From: a virus
Taxonomy: Duplodnaviria > Caudoviricetes
Reading direction: 5' to 3' (one strand)
Length of the DNA stretch: 44,571 nt
Virus record (IMG/VR): IMGVR_UViG_3300045410_000061
Span: 1-44,571 of that record
In this document: one piece after another, positions 5,641 to 39,237 of the stretch
How positions within the stretch are numbered: the first letter of the stretch is position 1
Layout of the letters: every line of letters starts with the position of its first letter
Translations under genes and position numbers: made by a program
The notes under the pieces: generated by a model
The model's input: only the letters and a program-made list of their open reading frames with translations
What the model was told of the DNA's origin: nothing
Databases searched by the model: none

Positions 5641-5677
5641 TGTGGAAATGATGAGCAGGAACCATAAGAGGAAGCCA

Positions 5678-7783: not shown

Positions 7784-8004
7784 TGCCGACTGCCGCCGAA
7801 CAAATCGCCACGATCCATGCCCAGACGTTGCAGATCATGGTGGACATCACCGCGAGCCCGAAGCCCAGTTATTCCGTGGGAGGCCGCAGCTTTTCTCATG
7901 CCGAGTATCTCGCCCACTTGCGCGAGACCGTCAAGTGGTGCGAGGAGAGATTAGACGGCTCCGCAAACGCACCATTTGAACACTCCTCAGTCGGCATCAC
8001 TTGA
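7783..8004 (+). CDS. Head-tail adaptor (gpW-like)
   Basis: TAATG overlap, 'KPSYSVGGRSFSHAEYL' motif, small size, synteny. Confidence 0.6.
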   Translation: MPTAAEQIATIHAQTLQIMVDITASPKPSYSVGGRSFSHAEYLAHLRETVKWCEERLDGSANAPFEHSSVGIT

Positions 8005-8324: not shown

Positions 8325-8325
8325 C

Positions 8326-11433: not shown

Positions 11434-13382
11434 TGCCCACCGAACGCGAGATCATCTACTGGCTGCGCGCCCGCGTACACCCGTCGTCCGAAGCCGAGAC
11501 GCGGCGGATGGAAGAGCTCGTCCGCAAAGGGCAGTCCGGCGGCGCAGGCGGGGCGGCGAACGGAGCCGGGGCCACAGCGGCGACGCAGCAGCAAGAGCGG
11601 TTGGCACGTGCCACCGAGGCGACGGCGAAGGCCACCTCGGCGCAGGCCGGCGCGCTGAAGGAAAACGAAGAGCGGCTGAAAAAAGTAGCGGAAGCCAGCG
11701 CGAAAGTCACGGACGGATTCCTGATGGCGTCCGAAGGCGCGCTGAAGATGGGCCGCGGCATCGCCGTCCTGGGGCTGGTTGGCGAAGAGGATCTGAAGAA
11801 GCTGACGGACGGGCTGCTGAAGATCCAAGGTGGCTTCGACTTGCTGAAGGGCGGCGTCGAAGTCTGGCGCGGGCTGACTGCGGCGGCGAATACGTATCGG
11901 GCGTCGCTGGCCGGCGTGGCGGCGGCATCGGCGGCGGCGAGCACCGTAGGGGCGGCTGGCGCGGCGGGTGGGGCGGCTGCGGCTGGTGGGGCGGGGGCGC
12001 TTGGGGCAGTTGCCTCAATCCTCATCAATCCGTTAACGCTCACTGCGGCTGCCGTAGCGGCTTTAGGAGCAGCCGCGATATACGCATCGAACAAAATTGA
12101 GAGATTGGCGGCAGAAGGCAAGGATCCGCTTAAAGATTCTTTGTTTGGGAGTTTCAGCGGTTTCGGCAACAGGACGGAAGGTGTTGGAACATCGCTCAGT
12201 ATCGCGGATGCCCTACAAGGTGGTGCAGGCGCCATTGGATTAGGACCATTGGCAAATGACATCGACCCAACAACTGGAATTGTCGAGCTTCGCCGCCGTT
12301 CTCGTGAAAGCGGAGAGAGTCTTAGCGGACAAGACGCTCGAAGACAATCCGCTATTTCCGTTCGCGACCGTGAAGCCGCCCGTCGCATCCAAGACTTCGA
12401 CCTTGAGCGCGGGCTGCGGGCGCAGGGCGGCGACCTGGACGTGCAACGGGCACGGCTAGGATTGAGCGGCGCTGCTGCCGGCCTGGCCGGCAACGCTGTA
12501 TCGACCCAAGCGGCACAAGGCGATCTGTCTGTCGCCGGGGCACGGCAAGCCGACATCCTCCGCCGCCGGGCGCTGGCGTCGCGTACAGGCGACGTATCGC
12601 AAGCCCCGACCCGCGACGAAGAAATCCAGGCGAATCAAGCGATCATCGACGCCCGAAAGCAACTTCTGCAATTGGACCAAGAGCGATTCGACCTGACCAA
12701 GCAAGCCGCACAGGAGGAAAAGGCCGCGGCGGTTGACGTGCTGCGGACGGAGCAAAAAGGCGCGCAGGTCCAGCAAGAGGCGGCACAGAAGAACCTGGAG
12801 GCGGCACGGGCGGAACTGGACTTGCGCAAGTCAGCTTTGGAGGCGGCGGAAAGCGCCGTCAACGCCGCAGTCCGGGCACGCGAAAGCGACGTGGAGAAGT
12901 TCGGCCGGTCCAGTCCCTTCGAGCAAGAGCAGCTTCGCAGCGCGGCGCGGAAGCTGGCGGCCGGGCAGGAGCTTTCCGGGGCGGAGCTTTCCGCGGCGGA
13001 AGGCACCAACCGTTTCCGCGAGCAAGCACGGCAACAGCGAGTGCGGGCTGGATTCGCGGCTGGCGGTGGCGACGTGTTCGGCGAAGACGAAGTCGGCCGG
13101 CTGGAAAACAATCTGGCCAACGCCCAAGCCCGCTTCGGGCAGCAGCATGGGCGAGTCAACCAGGCCCAAGGGCAGGTCAATCTGACGGCTGCCGTGACCG
13201 CGGCCGTGACCAACAAAATCGAGGTGGCGCTGAAGACGGAAGTGCAAGTCGACCCGGCGCAGTTCGAGGCGGCCGTGCGGACTCAACTCGACGCGATCAA
13301 CGCCGCCAACGAGCGGGCAATCGTCTTGCTGCGGGACCAGATGAACGAAAACTTCGCCCGCCTGGCGACGGGGAAAAACTAA
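11433..13382 (+). CDS. Tape measure protein
   Basis: 649 aa, Ala/Gly-rich, helical and coiled-coil character, follows the chaperone pair. Confidence 0.8.
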   Translation: MPTEREIIYWLRARVHPSSEAETRRMEELVRKGQSGGAGGAANGAGATAATQQQERLARATEATAKATSAQAGALKENEERLKKVAEASAKVTDGFLMASEGALKMGRGIAVLGLVGEEDLKKLTDGLLKIQGGFDLLKGGVEVWRGLTAAANTYRASLAGVAAASAAASTVGAAGAAGGAAAAGGAGALGAVASILINPLTLTAAAVAALGAAAIYASNKIERLAAEGKDPLKDSLFGSFSGFGNRTEGVGTSLSIADALQGGAGAIGLGPLANDIDPTTGIVELRRRSRESGESLSGQDARRQSAISVRDREAARRIQDFDLERGLRAQGGDLDVQRARLGLSGAAAGLAGNAVSTQAAQGDLSVAGARQADILRRRALASRTGDVSQAPTRDEEIQANQAIIDARKQLLQLDQERFDLTKQAAQEEKAAAVDVLRTEQKGAQVQQEAAQKNLEAARAELDLRKSALEAAESAVNAAVRARESDVEKFGRSSPFEQEQLRSAARKLAAGQELSGAELSAAEGTNRFREQARQQRVRAGFAAGGGDVFGEDEVGRLENNLANAQARFGQQHGRVNQAQGQVNLTAAVTAAVTNKIEVALKTEVQVDPAQFEAAVRTQLDAINAANERAIVLLRDQMNENFARLATGKN

Positions 13383-19383: not shown

Positions 19384-20594
19384 GTTGGCAACCGACATTA
19401 AATCAGCGGCAACGGTTGATCCGCTTTCGCAACGACAGCGGAGTCACGATTCCCGTGGATGGCGTCATGCGCCTCGGGCACAGCGAAGGCGTCGTTGGCG
19501 GCAGTCATAGCCTCGGCGGGAACGCCGATGGATTCGACAGCGGCTCTAATCCAGGCAATTTTCTACGACATCAGGCGGGCAATGGAATAAATGTCTTTCG
19601 CGCAATAACTGAAGGTGGAGGCGATCATATCTGGCGGGCGTGGCGGCCCAACGAATCGAGCGAGGCGTTTCAGGATCCGATGGCGCATTTTTTCAATTGC
19701 AGCGGCATGTCGGTAAAGAAAGACGAATATGGTTGGGGGTCGATGGACTTTCCATCGCAGGCGATCTATGACGGTGACCTCGGTGGAAGCGAAACGGCGA
19801 CGGCCAGTTGGGCCAGTTCGCCACCGACAAAATTTGCGTGGCGTCGGGAGCACGGGATAACCGCAACGTCATCGAATCCAGGCAATGACGATTATAGATT
19901 CTCACCAGGTCTTCGACTGGGATATGCGGGGCTGAAGGCCGGTTCGTTCAAGTTGCACGTCGGCTACGGCGATGCCTATACGATTTTGGACCACGATTAC
20001 AGCGGTCCCTACGACGTGTTTGGCGTAAGCGAAGTGAAGAATCCGAGCGGCAAGGTGGGGCAACGCTTGTGGGTTGTCCCTACGCTTCGGCGGCCTGGAA
20101 GTGGCTGTATGACGCAGTTCACGGGTTCTGGCGCCATCACCGACATCGTAGGTGGCATAATCCTTGGCCTTGGCGACCCGGATCACATTACTTACGGATG
20201 GGATCTGGCAACTGCGTCCAAGAAAATCATCGTTGGACAAGACGGCTGGTATCGCGTTTCGATCAATTGCTCTGTCGGCGTTGGGTACGCCGGCCCTGGC
20301 TACATCAGCGATACAGAGAGGATCAGCATTCGAGTATACGCAGTCGGTTCCGTGGCTGGCCTAGGACCGCACGCAAGATGCTCGTTCAATGTCTTTGATA
20401 TTGAGCCGGTGGATATTGGCTTAGACATTGTAGGTGGGGCAATACAAAAAAATCTGGCCGCCACATGGTGTCTGTGGCTGGAAAAAGACGAGGAAGTGCA
20501 GGTTGGAATGGACGGCAGTTACAATATTTCTCCGAGCAATATTTCGGCGGCAGTATCGTTGGGCCAACTCACCATCATGCGAGACGCATTTTGA
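19380..20594 (+). CDS. Putative receptor-binding / tail-tip protein
   Basis: Last tail gene, lower GC, C-terminal beta-sandwich-like 'DGWYRVSIN...WLEKDEEVQV'. Confidence 0.55.
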   Translation: MSWQPTLNQRQRLIRFRNDSGVTIPVDGVMRLGHSEGVVGGSHSLGGNADGFDSGSNPGNFLRHQAGNGINVFRAITEGGGDHIWRAWRPNESSEAFQDPMAHFFNCSGMSVKKDEYGWGSMDFPSQAIYDGDLGGSETATASWASSPPTKFAWRREHGITATSSNPGNDDYRFSPGLRLGYAGLKAGSFKLHVGYGDAYTILDHDYSGPYDVFGVSEVKNPSGKVGQRLWVVPTLRRPGSGCMTQFTGSGAITDIVGGIILGLGDPDHITYGWDLATASKKIIVGQDGWYRVSINCSVGVGYAGPGYISDTERISIRVYAVGSVAGLGPHARCSFNVFDIEPVDIGLDIVGGAIQKNLAATWCLWLEKDEEVQVGMDGSYNISPSNISAAVSLGQLTIMRDAF

Positions 20595-21625
20595 AGTGCT
20601 GCCTGCTAACGCCCAACCTGCAACTTGGAGGCGCGGAACTATGGTGTGCCTGGCTGACCCGACATTGCAAAGTCGATTGGCAAGGCATCTGTTGCATCAA
20701 CAACCGCGAACCGCATCCGCTGGTAATGCAGTCCGTTCGCGCTCCAGTTGTCCGCGGCGATATTGCCGCGGCGATATTGGCCAGCAAGTGCGACGTGGTC
20801 ATTGCCTGGGGCTGCGGCGAATCGCTTAGAATGATTGTCGCAGGGGCGAACGCCATCCAGGCGAGCCTAAAACGCAAGGTGGTATTTGTGTCGCACGGAT
20901 CAGTTCCGTGGGGCCAGCAACACGTCTCGCCGGTGCTGGAGACAGCCACGCATTTAGCCGCGGTGTCCCAGCCAGCAGCACGTATCTTTGGTGACCGGGA
21001 AGTGACGGTCATCCACAACGGTGTTTGCACCGAGCGATTGGCGCAGACTATCGACCGGGACACCTTGCGGGCGGAGTGGGGGCTGCATTCCAAGCATATT
21101 GTCTTAGGGTATGTCGGGCGGCTGAGTCCCGAGAAGAACCCCTTGGCGGCAGTCCATGCAGCACGCACGCTTGGTGGAAACTATCGTGCGGTACTGGTGG
21201 GAAACGTCTCCCCGCAATCCGGCCGGCGGTGGCAAGCCTTGCTGCCGCGAATCGGCGGCGACGCGGTTATCGTGCCGGCTCGTCGCGACGTCGGCAACGT
21301 GCTGCGGGCGATGGATTGTTTCGTGCTGGCCAGCCCAGCGGAAGGATTCTCCCTGGCCATCATCGAAGCTTGGCTCTGCGGTTGCCCCGTCGTCTGCACA
21401 CCCGTTGGCGCGATTCCCGAGCTACACGGGCTGTACGGTCAGATGGCGGTCACGGTGCCCGTAGGCGCAACGGGTGACGTGCTGGCGGGGGCGGTACGAC
21501 GTGCTGTGTCGGCGGAGAATCGAGAGACAGTTGAGCGGGCAAAGGCTGTGGCGCTCGCGGAGTTCACGGCGGAGAAAATGGGCGCGCGGTGGCGTGCGTG
21601 CTTGGAGCGGATCGCTCAATTTTGA
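20591..21625 (+). CDS. Glycosyltransferase, GT-B / family 4
   Basis: 'LGGAE', 'VIHNGV', 'VGRLSPEKN' and 'EGFSLAIIEAWLCGCPVV' motifs; TTGA overlap with the upstream gene. Confidence 0.9.
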   Translation: MKCCLLTPNLQLGGAELWCAWLTRHCKVDWQGICCINNREPHPLVMQSVRAPVVRGDIAAAILASKCDVVIAWGCGESLRMIVAGANAIQASLKRKVVFVSHGSVPWGQQHVSPVLETATHLAAVSQPAARIFGDREVTVIHNGVCTERLAQTIDRDTLRAEWGLHSKHIVLGYVGRLSPEKNPLAAVHAARTLGGNYRAVLVGNVSPQSGRRWQALLPRIGGDAVIVPARRDVGNVLRAMDCFVLASPAEGFSLAIIEAWLCGCPVVCTPVGAIPELHGLYGQMAVTVPVGATGDVLAGAVRRAVSAENRETVERAKAVALAEFTAEKMGARWRACLERIAQF

Positions 21626-21727
21626 CGCTGCTTGCTGGCGCACTTTGCACCAGCGAACCAAGTCCGACGAACGCAAGACAGCGGGCGACGAATGAGCGAC
21701 GTGTAGTAGCCATGCCGGAATCATACC

Positions 21728-22276
21728 ATGATAGTTTCCACCGTCCATCAATTCGTCCTACTCACCGCGCCGAAAACCGCATCGACCAGCTTTCACCGTT
21801 GGTTCACGTTACCGGGCTACCCAGCGTTCGATCCATTCCCCGACGACCAGCACCGCATGGAAGTGCTGCCAGAGCACGCCAATTACTTTCGCTGGACGGT
21901 TTGGCGCGAACCGCTGGACCGGGCCGTCTCGTTGTGGAGCCACCTCAACGGTGACCTGCGCCGCCACGGCTGGACCGAGATCGGCATTCATCCGTTTGCT
22001 TGGCTGCTGGCCGGCGGCGCACTCAAGCCGTTCTATCAGCGGACACAAGCGGATTGGCTCGGCGCAAACCGCATCGATTTGTTCGTGCGGTTCGATCAAC
22101 TGCCGGGCTCGCTGCTGGAGGTGCCGTTCGCGTTGCCGCCCGGTGCAATGCCGCAAGTCAACGCCACGCAACACCCGCCCTGGCAGGAGGTCTATGCCGA
22201 GCGTCCCGGCGTCCGCCGCGCCGTCGAGCACTGGGGCGAGCGGGACTACCGGCTGCTGGACGGCACGGTGAAATAG
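21728..22276 (+). CDS. Sulfotransferase family 2 protein
   Basis: PAPS-binding motifs 'PKTASTS' and 'REPLDRAVSLW'. Confidence 0.8.
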   Translation: MIVSTVHQFVLLTAPKTASTSFHRWFTLPGYPAFDPFPDDQHRMEVLPEHANYFRWTVWREPLDRAVSLWSHLNGDLRRHGWTEIGIHPFAWLLAGGALKPFYQRTQADWLGANRIDLFVRFDQLPGSLLEVPFALPPGAMPQVNATQHPPWQEVYAERPGVRRAVEHWGERDYRLLDGTVK

Positions 22277-22284
22277 CCTACAAT
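22257..22284 (+). promoter_or_regulatory. Putative promoter giving a leaderless csf1 transcript
   Basis: TGGACG-N16-TACAAT, 7 nt before the ATG at 22292, with no RBS. Confidence 0.45.
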
Positions 22285-22291
22285 CGCGGAC

Positions 22292-23077
22292 ATGACCGCT
22301 CCCGAGCTATTCGCCCTGGCGTCCGGCGTGCCGCTCAATTACGGCGAGCATCGCTGTTTTTACTGCGGCTGTCCAACGGACGAATCGTTCCCAGCCCGCC
22401 GTTACGTGGCCGACTCTTTCACCGAGAGGGACGCGGTAGCGTGCCCTGGCAGCAAGTACGTCTGTGGCGGCTGCGTCCAATGCCTGCGCAGCGACTTGGG
22501 CAGCGTGCCGTTGATCGATGGCGCCACGTACCGCAGCAAAGCGGACGGCAAGCGCAAGCCGCGTGAAGGCGCGGAAGGCGTGATCCAAATGCGGTGGTTC
22601 TCGTGGGTGCTGACCCGCGAGAAAGCGTTGGGAGCCACGCCGGCGCATCGCGAATTGCTCAATGGCATCTGCCTTGCGCCGCCCGAGCCGCCGTTCGCCA
22701 TCTGCATTGCTGACGGGAACAAGCACCAGTTGTTTCGCACGCCGGTCTGCCATTCGCTGGAACGGGTGTCGCTCAACTGCGAAGGGACGCGCGTCGAGTG
22801 CCATCCCGAAGATTTGCGGGACCGGCTGCAATTGGTCATGCGGCTAGTGGCTGTCGTCGGCAAAGGCGCGGACTCGCTCAAGCGACTGATGGATCCCATG
22901 AGCGAAATGAACGTGGTGTTGCAGTTGGCAAATCACTATGACGATGCGGGAGAGTTGTTCCAAGCGTGGCGCGCCGTGCGCTGCGAACCAACCACGAACC
23001 TTGCTATATGGCTTGCGCCAGGAAAGCAGGAAGCGAGTGAGTGTATTACAAGAACCGCCGCCGCTGGAGCGGTATAG
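22292..23077 (+). CDS. csf1: Type IV CRISPR-associated large subunit Csf1 (Cas8-like)
   Basis: 'CFYCG...SFTERDAVACPGSKYVCGGC' Zn motif and 'PPEPPFAICI...KHQLFRTPV', typical of Csf1. Confidence 0.85.
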   Translation: MTAPELFALASGVPLNYGEHRCFYCGCPTDESFPARRYVADSFTERDAVACPGSKYVCGGCVQCLRSDLGSVPLIDGATYRSKADGKRKPREGAEGVIQMRWFSWVLTREKALGATPAHRELLNGICLAPPEPPFAICIADGNKHQLFRTPVCHSLERVSLNCEGTRVECHPEDLRDRLQLVMRLVAVVGKGADSLKRLMDPMSEMNVVLQLANHYDDAGELFQAWRAVRCEPTTNLAIWLAPGKQEASECITRTAAAGAV

Positions 23078-23519
23078 CGCGGACAAGTTCCGTCTGTGGC
23101 TGGCGCACATGGTGAGTCAGGAATCGCCGCCGTTGCAATCGGACCGCGACGCCATGAAGGCGGCGCTGGTGGAGTTTCTTTCGGTGGTGCCGCTGGTGTA
23201 CGGATTGAAAGACAGGCTGACGCAGTGGGAGAAGATCGGCAACGCCGTAAAGGCGGCGCTAGAGACGTGCAACGGAAGCCTAGACGAGTGGGTGAACCAG
23301 GTCTTGGAAGGCATTCAAGCTGATGAGGGTCGAACAACGACCTGTGAGACCTACAGGGCTCAAGCCAGGCGGTTAGAATCACAAACCGATGCGTGGAAAT
23401 CCACGTGCCTGCAGGTTCTTAAATCTCTGTGGCGGTCACTTCCAGGTCAAGCGAGAGACATTTACAAGGCGACAATCGCACCAACTTGGAAGGAGCCCGA
23501 AGATGCTGGAGACGAGTGA
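23037..23519 (+). CDS. Type IV-B small subunit (Cas11-like, helical)
   Basis: About 160 aa, helical, overlaps both csf1 and csf2; this position is characteristic of type IV-B loci. Confidence 0.65.
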   Translation: MSVLQEPPPLERYSADKFRLWLAHMVSQESPPLQSDRDAMKAALVEFLSVVPLVYGLKDRLTQWEKIGNAVKAALETCNGSLDEWVNQVLEGIQADEGRTTTCETYRAQARRLESQTDAWKSTCLQVLKSLWRSLPGQARDIYKATIAPTWKEPEDAGDE

Positions 23520-24453
23520 TTATCGCCTCGTGCTGGTGCTTCGCGCCATCGACGGACTCAGGCAGATGAGCGGCCGATCCGGCAACGAGCTCATCATCAA
23601 CCGCGACCAGGTGCTGTACGATGGTGAAGCTGTGGGCGTGCCATCGGTGAGCGCCAACAGCATGCGGCACGCAGCGGTACGCGAACCGGGTGGGCTGTGG
23701 CTGATCGATGCCTATGAATTGGCAGGCACGCTCAAGAAAGAAATGCTGCGGCTGCTGACGAACGGCGGGAACAACGCCACGCTATCCGGCGGCGCGGAGT
23801 CTCTGTCTCGATTCGTGGCCATGCGCGAATCGCTGCCGCTGCTGGGCTTGATGGGCTGCGGGCTGCCTGACTCGCCGAAGCCTGGCGTGCTGAAATTCTC
23901 GGCGGCCACGCTGATCTGCCGAGAGACGCGTGAATACGTTGGCGTGATTGCGCCAGAGTTGGACTTGCCCGAGTGGTTGCGTCCGGCGCGGCTGTGCGTC
24001 GGCAAGTGGACTGAGTACAGGCACGACCCAACGCAGCAACGGCCGGACTTGCTGGCGGATCCCAATGAGGTGTCACGGCCCGCGAAAGACGGCAGCGACA
24101 AGAATTCGTCGATGCCTTACGGCGGTGAAGAGATCGTGCCCGGCTGTCTGCTGGTGAGCGAGATCCATCTTGAGTCGGCCACGCCGTTGGAGTTGGGCGC
24201 GCTGTTGTGGTCTCTACGTCTGTGGCAAGCGGCCGGCGGATTCGTGGGCGGCATGTCGGCCAAGGGCAACGGCCGTACCACAGCCATGCTGTGGAGCGAC
24301 TTGGACGATGGCGCATTGGCTGATGCAGCAGCGTCCTACGTGGCTTATGCTGTCGAGTCTCGCGATGCGGCTGTGGCTTGGCTACACGAGACGTACAGCA
24401 GCGAGCCGAAAGCCAAGGGCCGCGGCAAGAAGCAAAAGGAACTGATCGCGTGA
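23503..24453 (+). CDS. csf2: Type IV Cas7-family backbone protein Csf2
   Basis: AAGGAG RBS; 'VPSVSANSMRH..VREPG', 'LLTNGG', 'PLLGLMG' and RAMP G-loop 'VGGMSAKGNGR'. Confidence 0.88.
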   Translation: MLETSDYRLVLVLRAIDGLRQMSGRSGNELIINRDQVLYDGEAVGVPSVSANSMRHAAVREPGGLWLIDAYELAGTLKKEMLRLLTNGGNNATLSGGAESLSRFVAMRESLPLLGLMGCGLPDSPKPGVLKFSAATLICRETREYVGVIAPELDLPEWLRPARLCVGKWTEYRHDPTQQRPDLLADPNEVSRPAKDGSDKNSSMPYGGEEIVPGCLLVSEIHLESATPLELGALLWSLRLWQAAGGFVGGMSAKGNGRTTAMLWSDLDDGALADAAASYVAYAVESRDAAVAWLHETYSSEPKAKGRGKKQKELIA

Positions 24454-25130
24454 CGCCGGTACTCGTGACAGCCAGGCTGGCCGGCGAACTGGCCGGCGAG
24501 CCGCCGCAACTGGACGCCTTGCTGATCGCGGCCCGCTGCCGCTTTCATCCATCAGCCGGCGCACACGAGCGATACGATCCTGCGCCGCCGATGAATAAGC
24601 TGCCGCCGTGCGGGATCGAACGCGAATGGCTGGGCGATTGGCTGGTGCATCGCTGTTCGTCGCCCATCGTCGATGCGCCGCTGTCCGACCGGCACGAGCG
24701 GATCGGCCAGCACTTCCCGCGCGAACGCGCCACGCTGCTGGCGGCGTCGGAACAAGGCACGATTGCCACGACGAACGGCGCGCAGAAATCGATGTACCTT
24801 CCGGTCCGCAAGCGGCTGATAATGCGAGTGGCTTGGTTCGCGCTGGTGCATCACACCGCGGAGTTTCGCCGAGATCTGAAGCGGTCGGTCAAGCACCTCG
24901 GGCAAGACCGTTCGCGCGGCAACGGGCGTGTGGCGGAATGGACGGTGGAGATCGTGGAGGCCGACTACTCGTGGTTCGCGCCGCATCCGCAAGGGACTGT
25001 GCTGATGCGGCAACTGCCGGTTGGCGATTGGCTGCCGGCGGATCTGGTGGGTGCGTTCCAAGAGTACGATGCCTGCACGCCACCCTACTGGCATCCTTCT
25101 CGCAAGACATCGGTGATGCGCCCCGTGTAG
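24450..25130 (+). CDS. csf3: Type IV Cas5-family protein Csf3
   Basis: GTGA overlap; 'QLDALL', G-loop 'LGQDRSRGNGRVAEWTVE', 'LMRQLP' and C-terminal 'PPYWH'. Confidence 0.85.
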   Translation: MTPVLVTARLAGELAGEPPQLDALLIAARCRFHPSAGAHERYDPAPPMNKLPPCGIEREWLGDWLVHRCSSPIVDAPLSDRHERIGQHFPRERATLLAASEQGTIATTNGAQKSMYLPVRKRLIMRVAWFALVHHTAEFRRDLKRSVKHLGQDRSRGNGRVAEWTVEIVEADYSWFAPHPQGTVLMRQLPVGDWLPADLVGAFQEYDACTPPYWHPSRKTSVMRPV

Positions 25131-25139
25131 AATGGCGGC

Positions 25140-26486
25140 ATGCTGACGCTCGCACCACCCGAGAAGCCGCGCAACGTCACAGCGTTCCCGCCGCTTGAAC
25201 GACCGCCGCGGCAGAATATCCGCATCACGATTACCGAGCCCACCGAGCCGGAGAGCCGCAACAGCATGGGCTGCTGGTATGTCCAAGAGGCGGCGCGGTG
25301 GGCAGGGTTTCACGTCGAGTACGAGCCGTGGGACAACCGCACGCCGGCGGACGTGGAGTTGGTGAGCATCCACCATTGCACGGACTTTCCGCGGCTGCGG
25401 GACATGCCGCGCGTGGCGCCCATCAGGATCGTCGGCGGGCACGTGACGACGAACAATATTCGACCGGGCATCCCCTTCGGCGACGTGTTCTGCATCGGCG
25501 AAGGCGAGACGTGGATCCAACATGCGCTAACGATCCTCAACGTCGGCGGGACGGCGCGGGACTTGGCGCAGTTGCCGGGCACGTTGATGCCGCCGTTCGA
25601 CGGCGACATTCCCAAGGGCAACACCGAATCGGGCGTGCCGAAGCATCCGCCGTATCTCAATCGCGCAGGCGATGGACACGCCAAAGTCTGGTATCTCGAA
25701 ATGTCCCGCGGCTGTCCGTTTCATTGTCATTACTGCGAGCTGGGCTGGGCGTGGAAGTACCGGATGCAGGATACCGACTGGCTGCTTGAGCAAGTCGATT
25801 CCATCGACAGTACGCTGTCGCACAAGATCAGCTTATTCGCGCCGGACGAAGCGAGCCACCCAGGCTATGGCGACATTCTTGAGCGGATTCACAAGTGTAA
25901 GCTGGTGACCTCATTCGGTTCGATGCGTTTGGACGTGATTGTCAAGAAGCAACTGCCATTCAAGACGAACATGTTGATTCGCGTGGCGTTGGACGGCATC
26001 AGCGAAGCGACGCGCAAGCGAGTGGGCCGCAACATCAGCAACCAATCGGTCTACGATTACTTTCGATTCATGTCTGATCGCGGGCACTGCAATTTCAAGA
26101 TCTTCCAAATCTTCGGCTACCCGTGGGAGACGCTTGAAGATTGGGACGAATGGGAATGGCTGTGGAGCCGCATCGCCAGCATTCCGCGCAAGAAAAACGC
26201 GCATGTCCGCATCAAGTTCACGCCGCTGATCCCGCAGCCAAGTACGCCGTTGGGCGATTGCCAGCCAGTGTACGACGAGCGGCTGGTGGCACGCATCCAG
26301 CAATGGTTCGCGTCGGTGGGCCAGCCATTGCAGCGGCCTGGCTGGTGGGTCGAGTCGGACGGCATCATGTCCGCGCATTCGCACGCGCTGCAATGCCGGC
26401 TATCGACGGGCGACGAGACCACGCTGCTGGACGGCCAGGATTGGAGCGGCACGGAAACGCTCGTGGGGTATGACGTTTTCGCGTGA
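25140..26486 (+). CDS. Radical SAM enzyme with a B12-binding-like N-terminal domain
   Basis: CxxxCxxC motif 'SRGCPFHCHYC', 'IVGGH...DVFCIGEGE', 'IFGYPWET' and 'LIPQPSTP'; starts 9 nt after csf3. Confidence 0.9.
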   Translation: MLTLAPPEKPRNVTAFPPLERPPRQNIRITITEPTEPESRNSMGCWYVQEAARWAGFHVEYEPWDNRTPADVELVSIHHCTDFPRLRDMPRVAPIRIVGGHVTTNNIRPGIPFGDVFCIGEGETWIQHALTILNVGGTARDLAQLPGTLMPPFDGDIPKGNTESGVPKHPPYLNRAGDGHAKVWYLEMSRGCPFHCHYCELGWAWKYRMQDTDWLLEQVDSIDSTLSHKISLFAPDEASHPGYGDILERIHKCKLVTSFGSMRLDVIVKKQLPFKTNMLIRVALDGISEATRKRVGRNISNQSVYDYFRFMSDRGHCNFKIFQIFGYPWETLEDWDEWEWLWSRIASIPRKKNAHVRIKFTPLIPQPSTPLGDCQPVYDERLVARIQQWFASVGQPLQRPGWWVESDGIMSAHSHALQCRLSTGDETTLLDGQDWSGTETLVGYDVFA

Positions 26487-26491
26487 AGGCA

Positions 26492-26520
26492 TTGACGGCT
26501 GGGCGTCGATAGACTATCAT
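26492..26520 (+). promoter_or_regulatory. Sigma70-like promoter with an overlapping operator
   Basis: TTGACG-N17-TATCAT; imperfect palindrome TTGACG-GCTGGG-CGTCGA. Confidence 0.7.
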
Positions 26521-26552
26521 GGTGCGCGGGGCATCAACCCAGGAGACCAGCC

Positions 26553-26774
26553 ATGATCGCAACACGGATCCCAGACGGCACCTATTTTGTCCACGGCGAA
26601 TGCGATTGGGCCGCAGCCAGCTACCGCGGCGGCCAGCGGATTGACGCCGCGAACGAACTCCCGTCTGAATCTGACATCGACGTGGCGAACATGCACGTCG
26701 CGGACGCAGTCATTCGCGACGTGCTCGGCGAGGACACCGACTGCGACATGGCTGTCGTCACCCGCAGGGCATAG
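26553..26774 (+). CDS. Small acidic hypothetical protein
   Basis: AGGAG RBS; first gene after the promoter. Confidence 0.65.
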   Translation: MIATRIPDGTYFVHGECDWAAASYRGGQRIDAANELPSESDIDVANMHVADAVIRDVLGEDTDCDMAVVTRRA

Positions 26775-26775
26775 T

Positions 26776-27072
26776 ATGACCACTCTCTACGACACCGCCC
26801 AGGCCGCAGACGAGCTCGGCGTGTCCGTCCGCAGCGTCCAGCGAGCCAGCAAGCGCCACAAGATCGGCAAGCAGTTGGGCGTCGGCAAGCCGCGGGTATT
26901 CACCCAGGCCGACATCGATCGGCTGCGGCCGTTGATCCCCGGCAAGGCCGGCTGCCCGGACTTCACGACCGGCAACCAGTTCTGGCAGCAGCGGAAATCG
27001 CGGAATAATCCCAAGCCTAAAGCCACTAAGGACTTAGGACGCGGTAAGACGCGGAAACGTAAATCCGCCTAG
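26776..27072 (+). CDS. HTH DNA-binding protein (excisionase/MerR-like)
   Basis: 'YDTAQAADELGVSVRSVQR...RVFTQADIDRL'. Confidence 0.75.
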   Translation: MTTLYDTAQAADELGVSVRSVQRASKRHKIGKQLGVGKPRVFTQADIDRLRPLIPGKAGCPDFTTGNQFWQQRKSRNNPKPKATKDLGRGKTRKRKSA

Positions 27073-27510: not shown

Positions 27511-27563
27511 AACCGCCGGCAAGCCGGCAACCGCCGGCGAAGCCGGCAGAGGAAAGAACGATG
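27511..27563 (+). repeat. Hairpin+RBS cassette copy 1 (hairpin tandemly duplicated)
   Basis: AACCGCCGGCAAGCCGGC-AACCGCCGGCGAAGCCGGCAGAGGAAAGAACGATG. Confidence 0.9.
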
Positions 27564-27746
27564 GCGACCTACGAACTTGGCGGCCTCGTCAACGGTTCGC
27601 GAGCCCTTATCCGCGACGATGGCAAGACCGTGGCGCGAGTGGACAGCGACGAGGGGCCAGCTCTGGTGGGCGAGCTGACCCGCGAAGAGGCAATCGAACG
27701 CTTTGGTCTCGACGACGATTTCGACGACGCCGACGACGATGATTGA
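27561..27746 (+). CDS. Small very acidic protein
   Basis: Starts at the cassette ATG and ends DDDFDDADDDD. Confidence 0.75.
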   Translation: MATYELGGLVNGSRALIRDDGKTVARVDSDEGPALVGELTREEAIERFGLDDDFDDADDDD

Positions 27747-27793
27747 TCCGGGCACGACGGCCGAACCCCTTGCTGCTTGAGTTTCGACCCCCC

Positions 27794-27827
27794 AACCGCC
27801 GGCAAGCCGGCAGAGGAAAGAACGATG
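27794..27827 (+). repeat. Hairpin+RBS cassette copy 2
   Basis: AACCGCCGGCAAGCCGGCAGAGGAAAGAACGATG. Confidence 0.9.
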
Positions 27828-28439
27828 CAAATCTATATCAAGAACTCCAAGGCCCCGAGGCCGGAATTCGTGCGGGGTATAGTCACGCAATTGCGGGACT
27901 ACGATGTCCCGCCGAAAGACCAGTACGGCAATCAGCCCATTGCGGGCTACCTGTACTGGCGACAGACCACGACAAGCCGCCGCGTGTGGAGCGGCGAAAA
28001 TCACTGGGAGCTGTACGCGGTAGAGCCCGAGGAGGGCTACACGGTAGACGACGCCGCGAGTGTCGTCCTGGGGCGGTACGAGGGCTCCACCATTGGATTC
28101 ACCGTCCGGCGCATTCTGGCCAGCTCGCTTGAGCTGCCGAACGGCACGGTACTGCCGGCAAAGCTGGAGCCCGTCCGCGACCTGCGGTTCATGGCGGTCC
28201 AGCCCAGCAAAGAGCGCGGCATCGTGAATAGTGTCCACGATGCCTTTGCCAAGCTGCCGTTCCACCAGCCTGGTGGCGAGGGCAGCACGCTGGAAGAGCC
28301 GCATTTCGCCCTGTACATGCGGGAACTCGTGAGCTTCTTCGCTCACGAGAATCCTGATCTGTACCGAGCAGCACTGGCCGCGGGCGACGTGCTGACGCCC
28401 GCCAAGGAAATGTACGGTATGGACGCGGACGCCGCCTGA
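27825..28439 (+). CDS. Hypothetical protein (204 aa)
   Basis: Starts at the cassette ATG. Confidence 0.75.
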   Translation: MQIYIKNSKAPRPEFVRGIVTQLRDYDVPPKDQYGNQPIAGYLYWRQTTTSRRVWSGENHWELYAVEPEEGYTVDDAASVVLGRYEGSTIGFTVRRILASSLELPNGTVLPAKLEPVRDLRFMAVQPSKERGIVNSVHDAFAKLPFHQPGGEGSTLEEPHFALYMRELVSFFAHENPDLYRAALAAGDVLTPAKEMYGMDADAA

Positions 28440-28449
28440 CCCACCCCAC

Positions 28450-28482
28450 ACCGCCGGCAAGCCGGCAGAGGAAAGAAGGATG
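28450..28482 (+). repeat. Hairpin+RBS cassette copy 3
   Basis: ACCGCCGGCAAGCCGGCAGAGGAAAGAAGGATG. Confidence 0.9.
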
Positions 28483-28677
28483 AAAACCTACACCATCAAC
28501 AGCGAGTGTGGACTCGCGACAATTGAGGCAGCGACTATCGATGACGCGCGGGATCAATACGAGCGAGGCTTCCACTACGACTTCGCCGGCGCGGCGGCTG
28601 GGGAATACCCCGGCTCGTGGTACTGGATCGAGGCGGAAGGTACCCGCGTAGAGGATTGCACTGCGGACATGCCATGA
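28480..28677 (+). CDS. Small acidic hypothetical protein
   Basis: Starts at the cassette ATG; 65 aa. Confidence 0.75.
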   Translation: MKTYTINSECGLATIEAATIDDARDQYERGFHYDFAGAAAGEYPGSWYWIEAEGTRVEDCTADMP

Positions 28678-28690
28678 ATCACCACCCCCT

Positions 28691-28725
28691 AACCGCCGGC
28701 TACGCCGGCAGAGGAAAGAACGATG
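28691..28725 (+). repeat. Hairpin+RBS cassette copy 4
   Basis: AACCGCCGGCTACGCCGGCAGAGGAAAGAACGATG. Confidence 0.9.
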
Positions 28726-28839
28726 GGACATGTAATGACCACCAGGAACGACCTGCGGAACTGGGTTGACGCCGCTACCAGCGGCTGGAGCGAGTACCTC
28801 GAATCGCTCCCGGAACTGACCGAGTACGTAGCTGCCTGA
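28723..28839 (+). CDS. 38-aa peptide (below the ORF-track cutoff)
   Basis: MGHVMTTRNDLRNWVDAATSGWSEYLESLPELTEYVAA, starting at the cassette ATG. Confidence 0.65.
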   Translation: MGHVMTTRNDLRNWVDAATSGWSEYLESLPELTEYVAA

Positions 28840-30073: not shown

Positions 30074-30958
30074 TTACGCCGCGCCCCCTTGCTCTTTCTC
30101 GCCGGGCAGTATCAGCGGCGGCGGCTGGCAGCCTTCTTGCAGCTTGGCCAATCTCGGATCCACGTAGTGCCGTATCGCCATCGCCGGCGACTTGTGCCCA
30201 AGGAACTTCGCCGCCGCGCCCGCCTGCTGTGATTCCACAGCAGTCGCGCCGCTCTTGCGAATCGTCCTGGTCCCGCCCTTGAGTCCAGCCATGTCCCGGA
30301 TGCGCCCGAACAACGCCAGCACCTGGCGGCGCTTCACGATGTCCCCAAAGACGCGTTGACGCTCCGGCGGGAACGTGGCTTCCACCGCGGCCACTGTCTC
30401 GGGGCGCAAGCGACACATCACCGGCCACTGCGTCTTGTGCTGGATCACGATCAGCGTCCCATCCGTCCCGATGGCGTCGCGCTCGAGCAAGAGCAGATCC
30501 ACCAGCCGCAAGCCGCTTTCATACGCCACCAGGATGAACGCGCGGAACAGCGTCCGGTATTCGAGATCCCAGAAGCGGAACTTGCCCTTCAGTTTTTCCG
30601 CTTCGGCTAGCAGCTCGATAAGTTGCCGTTGCTCCCAAGCTTTCGGCAGCGTGGCGGGGATCTTCACCTTGCGCACGCGGCGCGGTGGCAACTCGGCCAG
30701 CCCTTCTTGATACGCCGCACGCCAGAGACACAGCAGGTTGTTGCGCTGCCCTTGCACGGTCCGCGGGGACAAGCCGCTGTCCAACATGGAGACGATCCAG
30801 CGGTTGAATTGGTCGTCGCTCAAATCGTCTACCGTGCTGGTGCGCGTCAGCCAGCGCTCGTATCTCGCCACCGTCCAACGGAGTTGATCGTAGTAGTCCG
30901 GCGTGAGGTCGCGAGATAGCCGGTACGATTCGAGCAGCCACTGAATGCTCTTCGACAT
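30074..30958 (-). CDS. Tyrosine recombinase / integrase
   Basis: SAM-like core-binding domain, then 'ESGLRLVDL', 'HKT', 'RTIRKSGAT', 'FLGHKS' and 'RHY'. Confidence 0.88.
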   Translation of the reverse strand: MSKSIQWLLESYRLSRDLTPDYYDQLRWTVARYERWLTRTSTVDDLSDDQFNRWIVSMLDSGLSPRTVQGQRNNLLCLWRAAYQEGLAELPPRRVRKVKIPATLPKAWEQRQLIELLAEAEKLKGKFRFWDLEYRTLFRAFILVAYESGLRLVDLLLLERDAIGTDGTLIVIQHKTQWPVMCRLRPETVAAVEATFPPERQRVFGDIVKRRQVLALFGRIRDMAGLKGGTRTIRKSGATAVESQQAGAAAKFLGHKSPAMAIRHYVDPRLAKLQEGCQPPPLILPGEKEQGGAA

Positions 30959-31168
30959 GTCAAGCCCCTTTCTGGGGTTTCTATCGACACGTCCTAGTCG
31001 GTCCCTCCTTTATTGGGTGCTGTGTCCACAGAGTCCATGCAACCCGTTGGCTGATTACAGCCGGGAAAATCGGCACAAAGCTACGCTAGAAATTTCGGCT
31101 AAAGGTGTGGTCGGTGTGCGCGCTATTGAGGGCGTCGGCCGGTTCAGCGGCATCCCATAGGTGTGCTT

Positions 31169-31252
31169 GCGAGCGTGGCGGAATTGGCAGACGCACCAGG
31201 TTGAGGGCCTGGCGGGAGCAATCCCGTGCGAGTTCAAATCTCGCCGCTCGCA
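31169..31252 (+). tRNA. tRNA-Leu (anticodon GAG), CCA not encoded
   Basis: Acceptor GCGAGCG/CGCTCGC plus A, D-arm GCGGAATTGGCAGACGC, anticodon arm CCAGG-TTGAGGG-CCTGG, long variable arm, T-loop TTCAAAT. Confidence 0.93.
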
Positions 31253-31285
31253 TTGGTAGTTTCCTGGAAAAACAAGGAGCCCCAA

Positions 31286-31873: not shown

Positions 31874-32021
31874 CGTTCGCTGAATCGGCGTCAGAAACCG
31901 ACCGGCGAATAAACAGACAACGCATCCTCTGCGCCGCACGCTGCGGCAACGTCGGATGCTTCCCGACTACCTAGCCAATTGCACCTATTGCGTGCGGGTT
32001 GGCTGCACATATGGATCATCC

Positions 32022-32783
32022 ATGCGCACGAAGCAAGTCTCGCCCGAAGTCCTAGCCGTCCTGCGCGGCTCGGAGTGGGACGCCAACGTATTGCGTCTCC
32101 CGCCAACGCAGCTTGAGCGCAAGCTGTACCTGGCGGTACACGACGCCTTGCTGTCGCTCGGCGGCAAGTGGGACCGCAAAGCCAAAGGACACGTCTTCGC
32201 TGAAGCGGCGCACGACGCCCTGGAATCGCTGATTGAATCGGGCGAGTACGTTTCGGCGGCGGACACCAAGCAGTTGCTGGGGCAGTTTGAGACGCCGGAT
32301 CGGCTGGCGGACGAAGTGGCGACGGCGTGCCGCATCGAAACATCGCATCAAGTCCTGGAGCCATCTGCCGGCAGCGGCAGGCTAGTCAAGGCTGCGGGAA
32401 ATTTCGGCCCGTCGTCAATTACGGCAATTGAGATTGACAAACGATTCATTTCGGCGCTGGAAGAACACTACGACACAAACGACGTTGAGCACGCCGACTT
32501 TCTCAGCGTGAAGCCATACGCGGTTTTCCATCGCGTTTTGATGAATCCGCCTTACGCTCGCCAGCAGGACATCGACCACGTCCTACACGCCTGGAAATTT
32601 CTCGCACCAGGCGGCCGGCTGGTGGCGCTCATGTCCGCTGGCTGGACGTTTCGCGAGAACGAAAAGAGCCGTGCGTTTCGCGGATTCGTGGATACGCATG
32701 GCGAGTGGAAACCGAACGAGCCGGGTGCGTTCAAGGAATCGGGCACGATGGTCAACAGCGTGATGGTGGTACTTGACAAGTAG
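32022..32783 (+). CDS. SAM-dependent (N6-adenine-type) DNA methyltransferase
   Basis: 'QFETP', 'VLEPSAGSG', 'MNPPY' and 'FKESGT' motifs; alternative start at 31956. Confidence 0.85.
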   Translation: MRTKQVSPEVLAVLRGSEWDANVLRLPPTQLERKLYLAVHDALLSLGGKWDRKAKGHVFAEAAHDALESLIESGEYVSAADTKQLLGQFETPDRLADEVATACRIETSHQVLEPSAGSGRLVKAAGNFGPSSITAIEIDKRFISALEEHYDTNDVEHADFLSVKPYAVFHRVLMNPPYARQQDIDHVLHAWKFLAPGGRLVALMSAGWTFRENEKSRAFRGFVDTHGEWKPNEPGAFKESGTMVNSVMVVLDK

Positions 32784-32849
32784 TTTCGTCCCGCGGCCGT
32801 GCGGATGGTGGCCGGCGGCCGCGGGTGGGATGAAGAAGGAGCGCAATAA

Positions 32850-34115
32850 GTGATTGCCACAGCCTACAAGCACGGCACGATTGCCATTGCCGAAATAGCG
32901 GTGAAATCCCGCGTGCGGCAGGAACTTGGAGACGTGGACGAACTCTGCCGCAGTATCGAGGAACTCGGTCTGCTACACCCGGTCGTCGTGACTGAGGACA
33001 AGCGGCTGGTGTCGGGACAGCGGCGGCTGGAGGCGTACCGGAAACTCGGCAGGGACAAGATCCCGGCCACGATAGTCAAGCACCTGGACGATGCGGCGTT
33101 GCTGCTGAAAGCGGAGCGAGACGAGAACACGTGCCGCAAGGCGTTCACGGTTTCCGAGGCCGTGGCGATGGGCCAGCGGCTGGAGGTGCTGTTCAAGCCG
33201 GCCGCGGCTGAACGGAAGGCGGCAGGGCAAAAGGCTGGTGGTAAGACAGCAGGACGCGGCAGAGAAAAGCTTAGTGGCAACTTGCCACCAAGCAATGAGG
33301 CGGATGCCGGCAAGACTCGCGACAAGGTTGCGCCGGCTGTTGGCATGGCCCCGCGTACCTATGAAAAGGCTAAGGCGGTTATCGAATCCGGCGACGCCGA
33401 GTTGATCGCCGAAATGGACGCTACCGGCAAGGTGGACGCGGCTTACAAAAAAAAGAAGGACGCGGACAAGAAACAGGAACGCGCCAAGCAGGCGTCCGCT
33501 GCCAAGCAGAAGGCCAAGAAAGTCGTCGGGGTGCATCACGGCGACTTCCGCGAACTCGGCAAAACGATTGCGGACAACTCCGCAGCCCTGGTGTTCACCG
33601 ACCCGCCCTACGACCGTGAATCGCTCCCGCTGTTTGACGACCTTGGCGAATTGGCAGCCAGGGTTCTCGTGGATGGCGGATCGCTGATTACGTTCTGCGG
33701 CCAGTACGTGCTGCCGGAAGTCATGGCCAGCCTGGGCAAGCATCTGCGGTTCTTCTGGATCTGCTGCTGCCAGCATACGGGTGACTCCGCGCAGATGCGA
33801 GAGTATGGAATCAAGGTGAAGTGGAAGCCGATGCTGTGGTTCGTCAAGGGATCGTTTCGTCGCGACCGCGAGCGATGGATAGATGATTTGATCGTCTCGG
33901 CACAGCAGAAAAGCCATCACGATTGGCAGCAGTCCGACGTTGAGGCCCGGCACTTTATAGAGGTGCTGACGGATGCCGGCGAAATGGTTGTCGATCCGTT
34001 TTGCGGCGGCGGCACAACGGCGGCCACAGCCGCGGCGATGGGCCGTAAGTTTTGGACGTGCGAGATTGACGCACACTCGTTTGAAATCGCGCGGGAGCGC
34101 ATCGGAAACGCATGA
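32850..34115 (+). CDS. ParB/Srx domain fused to an N4/N6 DNA methyltransferase
   Basis: 'GLLHPVVV...LVSGQRRLEA' followed by 'TDPPY' and 'VVDPFCGGGTT'. Confidence 0.88.
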   Translation: MIATAYKHGTIAIAEIAVKSRVRQELGDVDELCRSIEELGLLHPVVVTEDKRLVSGQRRLEAYRKLGRDKIPATIVKHLDDAALLLKAERDENTCRKAFTVSEAVAMGQRLEVLFKPAAAERKAAGQKAGGKTAGRGREKLSGNLPPSNEADAGKTRDKVAPAVGMAPRTYEKAKAVIESGDAELIAEMDATGKVDAAYKKKKDADKKQERAKQASAAKQKAKKVVGVHHGDFRELGKTIADNSAALVFTDPPYDRESLPLFDDLGELAARVLVDGGSLITFCGQYVLPEVMASLGKHLRFFWICCCQHTGDSAQMREYGIKVKWKPMLWFVKGSFRRDRERWIDDLIVSAQQKSHHDWQQSDVEARHFIEVLTDAGEMVVDPFCGGGTTAATAAAMGRKFWTCEIDAHSFEIARERIGNA

Positions 34116-38352: not shown

Positions 38353-38382
38353 CCCACCACCACCATACAGATGGAGACCAAG

Positions 38383-39237
38383 ATGAACCCAGGGCTTCGC
38401 AAGACAATTGACGATCACGGCGGTTGGCTGAGAGGAGAGCAAGGCGGAACCCGTGCCGTCCTCAGCGGTGCCGTCCTCAGCGGTGCCGACCTCAGCGATG
38501 CCGTCCTCAGCGGTGCCGACCTCAGCGGTGCCGACCTCCGCGATGCCGTCCTCAGCGATGCCGTCCTCAGCGGTGCCGTCCTCAGCGGTGCCGTCCTCAG
38601 CGGTGCCGACCTCCGCGATGCCGACCTCAGCGGTGCCGACCTCAGCGGTGCCGTCCTCCGCGATGCCGTCCTCAGCGGTGCCGTCCTCAGCGGTGCCGAC
38701 CTCAGCCGTGCCGTCCTCAGCCGTGCCGTCCTCCGCGGTGCCGTCCTCAGCGGTGCCGACCTCCGCGGTGCCGACCTCAGCGGTGCCGTCCTCAGCCGTG
38801 CCGTCCTCAGCCGTGCCGACCTCAGCGGTGCCGACCTCAGCGGTGCCGACCTCAGCGGTGCCGACCTCAGCGGTGCCGTCCTCCGCGATGCCGTCCTCAG
38901 CGGTGCCGCCGGCGTCGCCACCCGCAACGAGTGCATTGCCCGCTTGGACGTGATTCGCGAACACATCATCGACCACGGCGACAGCCTGGATATGGGCCAT
39001 TGGCACGGCGAAGACTGGACGCCGGAGACGCAGCCAGTTCACGCCTGCCAAACGACGCACTGCTTGGCTGGCTGGGCACAGGCCCTACACCCGGATGCAT
39101 TCGTTCGAGCCCTCGATCCAGTAGATGCCGGCGTGAAGCTGATTCCGCTGGCCGTTCCGTTGTTTTGGTCCAGCAACGACGTGGTGCTGAACTGGTTGCG
39201 CAACCGCACTTATGCGAAGGAGACCCCCCATGCTTGA
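38383..39237 (+). CDS. Pentapeptide repeat protein with a C-terminal CxTTHCxAGW domain
   Basis: 30 x A(D/V)L(S/R)(G/D/R); alternative start at 38371. Confidence 0.9.
   Translation: MNPGLRKTIDDHGGWLRGEQGGTRAVLSGAVLSGADLSDAVLSGADLSGADLRDAVLSDAVLSGAVLSGAVLSGADLRDADLSGADLSGAVLRDAVLSGAVLSGADLSRAVLSRAVLRGAVLSGADLRGADLSGAVLSRAVLSRADLSGADLSGADLSGADLSGAVLRDAVLSGAAGVATRNECIARLDVIREHIIDHGDSLDMGHWHGEDWTPETQPVHACQTTHCLAGWAQALHPDAFVRALDPVDAGVKLIPLAVPLFWSSNDVVLNWLRNRTYAKETPHA
38455..38904 (+). repeat. Coding tandem repeat, 30 x 15 nt
   Basis: Unit GCCGWCCTCMGCSRT. Confidence 0.95.

Follow-up and report, generated by a model that had tools for sequence, protein, structure and literature searches.

A phage type IV-B-like cassette with a radical SAM enzyme in the CysH slot

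The window analyzed here, the whole 44,571-nucleotide contig of an uncultured sediment phage that is cut at both ends, carries a variant of type IV-B in which a radical SAM enzyme takes the place of cysH. Our tentative reading of this IV-B-like phage cassette, to which we give slightly less than an even chance, is that the Csf proteins would assemble on RNA and that the radical SAM enzyme would draw on cobalamin and SAM to modify the nucleic acid held by the Csf complex, most likely by C-methylation.

Gene content of the cassette

All genes of the cassette lie on the plus strand. The first, csf1 (22292..23077), encodes a Cas8-like large subunit of 261 residues with Cys-rich zinc-finger motifs, matched by the PADLOC typeIV_Cas8 model (E 5.8e-48) and, below its cut-off, by TIGR03114 (E 1.8e-9). 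The cas11-like small subunit gene (about 23037..23519) has a start inferred from its context, a likely GTG that leaves ~160 residues of an ORF reaching back to 22938 (193 residues; PADLOC typeIV_Cas11, E 1.9e-15 for this longer ORF). The ensuing csf2 (23503..24453) and csf3 (24450..25130) encode a Cas7-like backbone subunit of 316 residues (typeIV_Cas7, E 3.7e-51) and a Cas5-like subunit of 226 residues (typeIV_Cas5, E 8.9e-23). The assignment of these genes in the earlier note, made from the sequence alone, is hence upheld by PADLOC type IV HMMs for all four proteins; the NCBIfam csf1, csf2 and csf3 models match them as well, each below its own cut-off. A Csf2 profile retrieves the IV-B Csf2 structure 7JHY (E 2.2e-11), and in a quick tree, where the window branch is long, the window Csf2 falls within a clade of 42 Csf2 rows with support 99, in which 32 rows are linked to CysH. 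The fifth gene (25140..26486), located in the CysH slot, encodes the Csf-linked radical SAM enzyme of 448 residues with a predicted cobalamin-binding N-terminal domain, as indicated by PF04055, TIGR models, AlphaFold2, Foldseek and neighbourhood surveys.

With the starts as called, csf1, cas11, csf2 and csf3 overlap serially by 41, 17 and 4 nt, and the ATG of the radical SAM gene follows the end of csf3 after 9 nt. In the earlier note the five genes look like one operon. They may share a single transcript, but a weak promoter-like match (25104..25133, plus strand) ends 6 nt short of the ATG of the radical SAM gene, which may thus have a promoter of its own. This match may be incidental, because its -10 box and the stop codon of csf3 overlap. 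A sigma70-like match (22257..22284, plus strand; 9/12 consensus positions, by consensus only) ends 7 nt before the csf1 ATG and makes a leaderless start possible; promoter-like sites in the 11-kb region number 6, against 2.6 expected. A read-mapping joint skipping 22230-26800 was discounted, having just 22 letters on one side. The upstream glycosyltransferase and sulfotransferase-like genes were rejected as parts of the module, since no homologue lies beside csf genes in any fetched locus.

The contig also agrees with the description of an array-less, IV-B-like module devoid of cysH. No CRISPR-like repeat pair was found in its 44.6 kb, open at both ends, and an HMM built from Csf-linked CysH-like copies reports no better than E 0.9 across the six frames. 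Pfam returns no match for cas6, dinG, cas1/2 or PAPS reductase among 59 chosen window ORFs, and features of types IV-A, IV-C and IV-D (DinG, a Cas10-like HD subunit, RecD, cas6, an array) are absent from the scanned window ORFs. An Rfam scan of the window returns tRNA alone. As the adjacent cysH-like gene is absent, the cassette is filed as a IV-B variant and not as a typical member.

The lack of an array is the rule among relatives and is not universal. One locus (L038) carries a CRISPR array directly 3' of csf3, three relatives carry cas6e, and one relative (L045) combines cas6e, the Csf-linked radical SAM enzyme, a PAPS reductase and RecD2. The spacers extracted from L038 (six) and L108 (two) match nothing among the loci compared, and the L038 array matches nothing in GenBank phages. 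L108 also possesses a second B12 radical SAM enzyme, which found itself alone in the search. A sliding-clamp motif is enriched in the Csf1 tails of relatives (8/100 versus 7/673 in the background, Fisher p 1.8e-4); being absent from the window Csf1, it was dropped as a feature of this locus.

Linkage to csf genes and exchange with CysH

A csf gene lies within 3.5 kb of the enzyme in 49 of the 52 non-redundant loci of its clade, and none accompanies any of its 37 distant relatives, so the link is not due to chance. In 22 of these 52 loci the enzyme has csf genes to either side, and several gene orders occur. The earlier note had made its proposal depend on recurrent adjacency to csf3, and in 43 of 53 loci csf3 is indeed the csf gene closest to the enzyme on one of its sides. 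The clade's other recurrent neighbours are terminase or portal genes, together with ParB-like (10 of 53 loci) and DNA-methylase genes (8 of 53). Searches with the enzyme and Csf2 return no match in GenBank phages, nor does the enzyme match any PLSDB plasmid. An apparent Csf1-radical SAM fusion (L025) was rejected because the additional N-terminal stretch corresponds to a shadow frame over csf1.

The radical SAM enzyme is near-exclusive with cysH, and the two have been exchanged repeatedly. A single Csf2 query returned no viral loci and a Csf2 alignment query returned 71. The neighbourhood survey of csf2 homologues bears out the exchange envisaged in the earlier note: among 70 Csf2-anchored viral loci, a CysH-like gene occurs in 60, a count inflated by near-duplicate phages, the radical SAM gene in 6, a frequency that is overstated because the Csf2 of four of these six contigs sat in the query alignment, and both in none. 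In the enzyme clade a CysH-like gene is also near in 2 of 52 loci (adjacent in L045, ~0.8 kb downstream in L103), many of the 52 contigs being too short to exclude one. Close relatives swap the partner in the same slot: L114 reads csf3-HTH-radical SAM and L116 csf3-HTH-cysH, their Csf2 and Csf3 being 67% and 64% identical. In the pair L120 and L122, Csf2 is 70% identical and the radical SAM enzymes just 22%. On the Csf2 tree the partner label needs 10 changes, at least 7 of which are imposed by branches with support of 95 or higher, and the radical SAM enzymes make up one side of a 96-supported branch. The slot is likely to be functionally equivalent for the radical SAM and CysH-like proteins. 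Other genes are found as insertions between csf3 and cysH, among them a SpoU RNA methylase gene (6 loci, ~4 distinct) as well as genes resembling DNA methylases. Csf operons also contain a second family of radical SAM enzymes, which is found beside a ParB-like gene before the terminase as well (L181).

Across 31 loci, the divergence of the enzyme does not follow that of the Csf proteins (rho 0.08, 0.12 and -0.01; permutation p 0.12-0.51), whereas the Csf proteins covary among themselves (rho 0.56-0.68, p 0.0005), in a test limited by Csf identities of 19-25% that are near saturation. Across Csf sets this divergent, the enzyme retains a median identity of ~47%. It therefore behaves as a mobile plug-in. 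The genomic part of the earlier note holds, the enzyme recurring in the CysH slot. Its functional suggestion, that the ribonucleoprotein recruits the radical SAM enzyme, stays conjectural and is weakened in the sense of a specific co-evolved interface. Enzyme and Csf proteins are probably coupled via a shared substrate and not through such an interface.

The radical SAM enzyme and its substrate

The CxxxCxxC motif is intact as CPFHCHYC, its cysteines C192, C196 and C199 being invariant in 72/72 aligned sequences, and PF04055 matches above its cut-off (E 2.6e-8). TIGR04013 (E 1.4e-12; 47.1 bits, cut-off 251) and TIGR03960 (E 5.5e-11; 41.7 bits, cut-off 462.3) score far below theirs, and identity to TIGR04013-type relatives is ~25%. 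The enzyme clade is separate, mostly viral and tied to csf genes. Foldseek analysis of the AlphaFold2 model (pLDDT 93) reports MgmA (9CCB) as the best match (E 8.5e-18), and the ten best matches all belong to the cobalamin-type or MiaB-type radical SAM enzymes (MgmA, CysS, TsrM, MtaB, TokK; E 8.5e-18 to 4e-10), each solved structure sharing less than 20% identity with the enzyme. The nearest cellular models are of the TIGR03960/DUF2344 type (TM 0.82), a family annotated as possibly RNA-modifying. Matches to MgmA, CysS, TokK and TsrM, by fold and by profile, reach into the N-terminal domain, for which PF19864 reports a hit below its cut-off (E 1.3e-4) and PF02310 (B12-binding) no match on the window protein. 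An invariant polar pair, H78-H79, lies in a loop of the predicted cobalamin domain. Radical methylases have been described with a hydrophobic lower face (PMC12931638), and terms for a lower-axial residue were not found in PMC13469106. Judging from the modelled fold, the enzyme probably binds cobalamin.

Regarding the substrate, nucleic acid has a slightly better than even chance, RNA being slightly favoured over DNA. Established work indicates that IV-B Csf2 and Cas11 form filaments that bind heterogeneous RNA of ~55-60 nt, without a nuclease (RNA-bound filament: PMC7937560); by analogy, Csf2 and Cas11 of the window cassette may form an RNA-bound filament. The hints of a nucleic-acid substrate are all indirect: the inserted methylase genes, the TIGR03960-type likeness, and the ParB-adjacent second radical SAM family. 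Counted against the reading are the best structural match, MgmA, which modifies protein, the failure of PF02310 to match, and the polar H78-H79 pair.

A protein substrate, whether one of the Csf subunits or a host protein recruited by the complex, is rather unlikely. MgmA, a protein glutamine C-methylase, ranks first among solved structures in sequence (E 1.6e-12) as well as in fold, and of the cellular sequence families tested the nearest, TIGR04013, scores against the MgmA family (TIGR04014) too; however, the likeness to MgmA amounts to 14% identity and a shared fold only, and a Csf substrate fits poorly with an enzyme so much better conserved than the Csf sets it accompanies, with which it does not covary. 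The enzyme could instead make or destroy a small molecule resembling a nucleotide, such as a signal, a toxin or an anti-defence product, that the Csf complex would either sense or trigger, CysH-like proteins doing so by adenylation. A diffusible product would explain why unrelated enzymes are exchanged freely with no co-evolution, CysH-like proteins retain a nucleotide-binding PP-type motif (PMC8175902), and a signalling role has been proposed for them (10.1101/270033), but no sensor or effector gene recurs among the neighbour families of the 53 clade loci, and we consider this possibility unlikely. Lastly, the Csf complex may be a crRNA sponge, as a model in the literature and the earlier note have it, or may borrow host crRNAs, the radical SAM enzyme being an independent accessory that shares its location. 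The possible separate promoter and the few relatives carrying cas6e or an array would suit this view; nevertheless, it leaves an intact enzyme kept inside the operon unexplained. The clade almost never occurs without csf genes, sits inside the operon in 22/52 loci and replaces cysH, a pattern that a passenger would not give, which makes this explanation very improbable. Modification of complex-held nucleic acid, the preferred reading, could be extended into a broader and rather improbable scheme, in which IV-B complexes would be Cascade-derived, RNA-scaffolded, snoRNP-like nucleic-acid modification machines with a plug-in catalytic slot that could be occupied by adenylating enzymes of the CysH-like kind, by two or more radical SAM families, or by methylases of RNA or DNA, the present clade installing cobalamin-dependent carbon modifications at RNA-selected sites.

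Comparison with known systems

The window enzyme shares the predicted N-terminal alpha/beta domain and the radical SAM core with its CxxxCxxC motif with MgmA/QCMT (9CCB), CysS, TokK and TsrM, and differs from the uncharacterised TIGR04013 and TIGR03960 families in forming its own clade at scores far below their cut-offs. Type IV-B systems such as that of Mycobacterium sp. JS623 (7JHY, PMC7937560) share the window's four core genes and their order. Both are borne by mobile elements and are devoid of cas6, helicase, adaptation genes and array. In contrast to IV-B, where the literature describes CysH as nearly invariant, the contig has no cysH-like gene and a cobalamin-type radical SAM enzyme of unrelated fold occupies the slot, an arrangement of which we found no description in the literature. 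Reviews regard the CysH-like gene as the key to the unexplained IV-B function. As an unrelated enzyme replaces CysH repeatedly without co-evolving with the Csf proteins, the slot appears to supply chemistry acting on a shared substrate. Since radical SAM turnover is easily followed (5'-deoxyadenosine, SAH, isotope-labelled methyl), the variant offers a direct assay of the IV-B target, and, should its chemistry be guided by RNA, it would be a naturally occurring programmable modifier of nucleic acids. Type IV-D, which derives from IV-B and uses a RecD helicase (10.1101/780106), has a helicase and an array association that the window lacks, but similarly joins a IV-B-type core to a different accessory enzyme, and thereby provides a precedent for accessory exchange on such a core. 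The replacement of the CysH-like helper, seen in dozens of further phages, suggests that the IV-B complexes probably cooperate with exchangeable enzymes, whose predicted role is to modify nucleic acid.

The csf gene cassette of the window

The four type IV-B-like genes csf1 (22292-23077), cas11 (about 23037-23519), csf2 (23503-24453), and csf3 (24450-25130) overlap serially, and the ATG of the 448-aa radical SAM gene (25140-26486, plus strand) lies 9 nt past csf3, an arrangement described in the earlier note and borne out by the gene coordinates. The Csf assignments proposed there also hold, as the four products match PADLOC type IV models and a Csf2 profile search retrieves the IV-B structure 7JHY. 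The GC3 of the radical SAM gene (0.80) resembles that of the phage's structural genes. As for the five genes being one operon, the close spacing agrees, while a single transcript is only plausible because promoter-like matches occur directly 5' of csf1 and, weaker, directly 5' of the radical SAM gene. The reported lack of cas6, cas1/2, cysH, and array is upheld: 59 chosen window ORFs return no cas6, helicase, cas1/2, or PAPS-reductase match, a CysH-like HMM trained on Csf-linked copies finds nothing in the window's six frames (best E 0.9), and neither array-like repeats nor CRISPR RNA families are found in the window, a contig open at both ends. Directly 5' of csf1, after a 15-nt gap, lie a GT4 glycosyltransferase and a sulfotransferase-like gene (20465-22276), a pair that is not conserved at other csf loci.

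The window is the full 44,571-nt contig, whose genes for portal, capsid, tail-tube, integrase, RecT, and PD-(D/E)XK proteins and for a tRNA-Leu mark it as a tailed, probably temperate phage. The stretch occurs in two sediment metagenome runs, one possibly its source, and pieces from the other run show no differences within cas11, csf3, and the radical SAM gene. At 30074-31253, a tyrosine integrase is encoded on the minus strand ~200 nt from the tRNA-Leu(GAG) gene, a stretch that is possibly an attachment-site region. Elsewhere, two DNA-methyltransferase-like genes (31956-34115), one with a fused ParB N-terminal domain, and a pentapeptide-repeat protein coded by a long 15-nt tandem repeat (38371-39237) are found. 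A motif of ~30-57 nt is present four times at 27514-28743, each copy closing with purine-rich sequence plus the ATG that opens a small unknown gene (at about 27525, 27789, 28444, and 28687). The arrangement resembles an expression cassette repeated to serve a series of early genes.

Recurrence beside csf3 and exchange with cysH

Searching with the enzyme returned 197 homologues at E ≤0.001; 71 of the 120 listed, together with the window protein, constitute alignment A1, with which loci were fetched from viral (22), genome (7), and metagenome sequences (80, the best of 465). The 72 close loci (33-59% identity; one short fragment 85%) form 52 groups at 90% identity. In this viral, genome, and best-80-of-465 metagenome set, 49 of the 52 groups carry a same-strand csf gene no more than 3.5 kb away; the other three have at most 510 nt of upstream sequence each, and cas6e is there in one. 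Csf genes flank the enzyme on both sides in 22/52 groups, their order varying between loci, and on one side its closest csf neighbour is csf3 in 43 of 53 loci, window counted, so that the adjacency anticipated in the earlier note is recurrent. A CysH-like gene is near the enzyme in 2/52 groups (L045 and L103), many contigs being too short to judge, and in L105 it is 9 kb away. Both csf and cysH are absent at all 37 distant relatives (~25% identity; the one tested belongs to TIGR04013). In a FastTree phylogeny that includes 18 of these, a 96-supported branch sets the 51 full-length members of the clade apart. The atlas clusters closest to the enzyme by features are mostly viral (73-100%).

A Csf2 alignment search gave 71 viral loci, and the 70 new ones carry a CysH-like gene (60 loci), a radical SAM gene (6), neither (1), or are truncated (3), none having both; PF01507 was detected in 14 of 15 CysH-like members tested. 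The Fisher p of 1e-7 overstates certainty because near-duplicate loci raise the count of 60 and independence between loci does not hold. Four of the six radical SAM loci are contigs that contributed their Csf2 to the query, hence L118 and L122 are the unbiased finds. These carry in the CysH slot (L118:7227-8576; L122:8924-10375) a second radical SAM family, with 22% identity to a clade member. The predicted exchange is directly seen in two close pairs: L114 and L116 share the layout csf1-cas11-csf2-csf3-HTH (Csf2 67% and Csf3 64% identical), after which radical SAM follows in L114 and cysH in L116, and L120 and L122 have 70% identical Csf2 and different radical SAM families. In a quick IQ-TREE Csf2 tree (100 proteins, nine duplicates omitted), the radical SAM label requires 10 changes, no fewer than 7 of which are imposed by branches with support of at least 95, and the window Csf2 is on a long branch within a 99-supported clade of 42, of which 32 rows are CysH-linked.

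In the 31 loci that have all four proteins, Csf1, Csf2, and Csf3 diverge in step, their pairwise identities being correlated (rho 0.56-0.68, permutation p 0.0005), and the enzyme's identities do not correlate with theirs (rho 0.08, 0.12, and -0.01; p 0.12-0.51). The closest enzymes to the window's are in L001, L104, L103, and L025, and the closest Csf proteins in L020, L108, L013, and L057. We infer a mobile enzyme able to work with widely divergent Csf sets. A link through a common substrate would fit better than a specific protein interface, within the limits set by saturated Csf identities (medians 19-25%).

Several relatives depart from this layout. In L038, a radical SAM-type operon, a CRISPR array of at least 9 repeats of 37 nt (12213-12832) begins 30 nt after csf3; no cas6 is recognised near it, and its spacers match nothing among the fetched loci or in GenBank phages. 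Cas6e occurs in L008, L030, and L045, the last a contig truncated upstream with cas6e, radical SAM, PAPS reductase, and RecD2 helicase in one run (3-5841). A second, different B12-domain radical SAM stands between csf3 and the clade enzyme in L013 (tandem genes at 6523-9233) and L108 (8613-11245), the latter with a three-repeat mini-array ~7.5 kb downstream. Many loci have a long Csf2, with a weak Cas11 match in L017, and no separate cas11, and this protein is probably a Cas11-Csf2 fusion. Q-x-x-L-F-like C-termini, which resemble a sliding-clamp binding motif, are found in 8/100 Csf1 (e.g. L058, L064, L127, and L155) vs 7/673 background ORFs, and the window lacks them. In L064, a sliding-clamp gene directly follows the radical SAM gene.

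Fold and candidate substrate of the enzyme

The CxxxCxxC motif is invariant in all 72 aligned sequences, and the enzyme's family scores are far under the cut-offs. Its AlphaFold2 model (pLDDT 93) comprises an N-terminal α/β domain and a radical SAM core. The best solved match is MgmA (E 8.5e-18, 14% identity), followed by CysS, TsrM, an MtaB model, TokK, and MiaB, and the closest cellular models are of the TIGR03960/DUF2344 type (TM 0.82). Given these fold matches, cobalamin use is likely. H78-H79, invariant polar residues within the predicted cobalamin domain, may leave room for a reaction other than radical methylation.

Hints of a nucleic-acid substrate are indirect. CysH-type loci have SpoU and DNA-methylase-like insertions in the corresponding region, the SpoU-family RNA methylase lying between csf3 and cysH in L124, L128, L138, L140, L141, and L145 (Pfam confirmed one member); the radical SAM loci have none. 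In L181 (44-1848), a relative of the second radical SAM family stands not in a CysH slot but next to a ParB-like gene ahead of terminase; no csf is detectable there, on a contig that extends only about 540 nt upstream. The TIGR03960/DUF2344 family, annotated as possibly RNA-modifying, hints the same way. IV-B Csf proteins form an RNA-bound filament (PMC7937560). By analogy, the window's Csf proteins might form such a filament and the enzyme would modify a nucleic acid bound in it, the likeliest of the readings, though at somewhat below an even chance. Modification of a protein by the enzyme is unlikely, and a small-molecule product is slightly more doubtful still. That the radical SAM gene is just a passenger next to a complex acting as a crRNA sponge seems very improbable.

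Comparison with type IV-B systems

No description of the Csf/radical SAM pairing was found in the openly available papers and main preprint texts searched, though CRISPR-mining supplements could list such loci. It is not described in the matching passages of PMC11437467, PMC8175902, 10.1101/2023.08.24.554615, PMC9723712, PMC11656645, PMC4158269, 10.1101/2021.08.16.456562, PMC12931638, PMC7937560, and 10.1101/270033; 'radical sam' is absent from three supplements of PMC12669027, and 'radical' from the main text of 10.1101/780106. Both real and recurrent, the window cassette is a new type IV-B variant with a dedicated, exchangeable radical SAM. It differs from typical type IV-B in having no cysH on the contig, for which the radical SAM enzyme is substituted.
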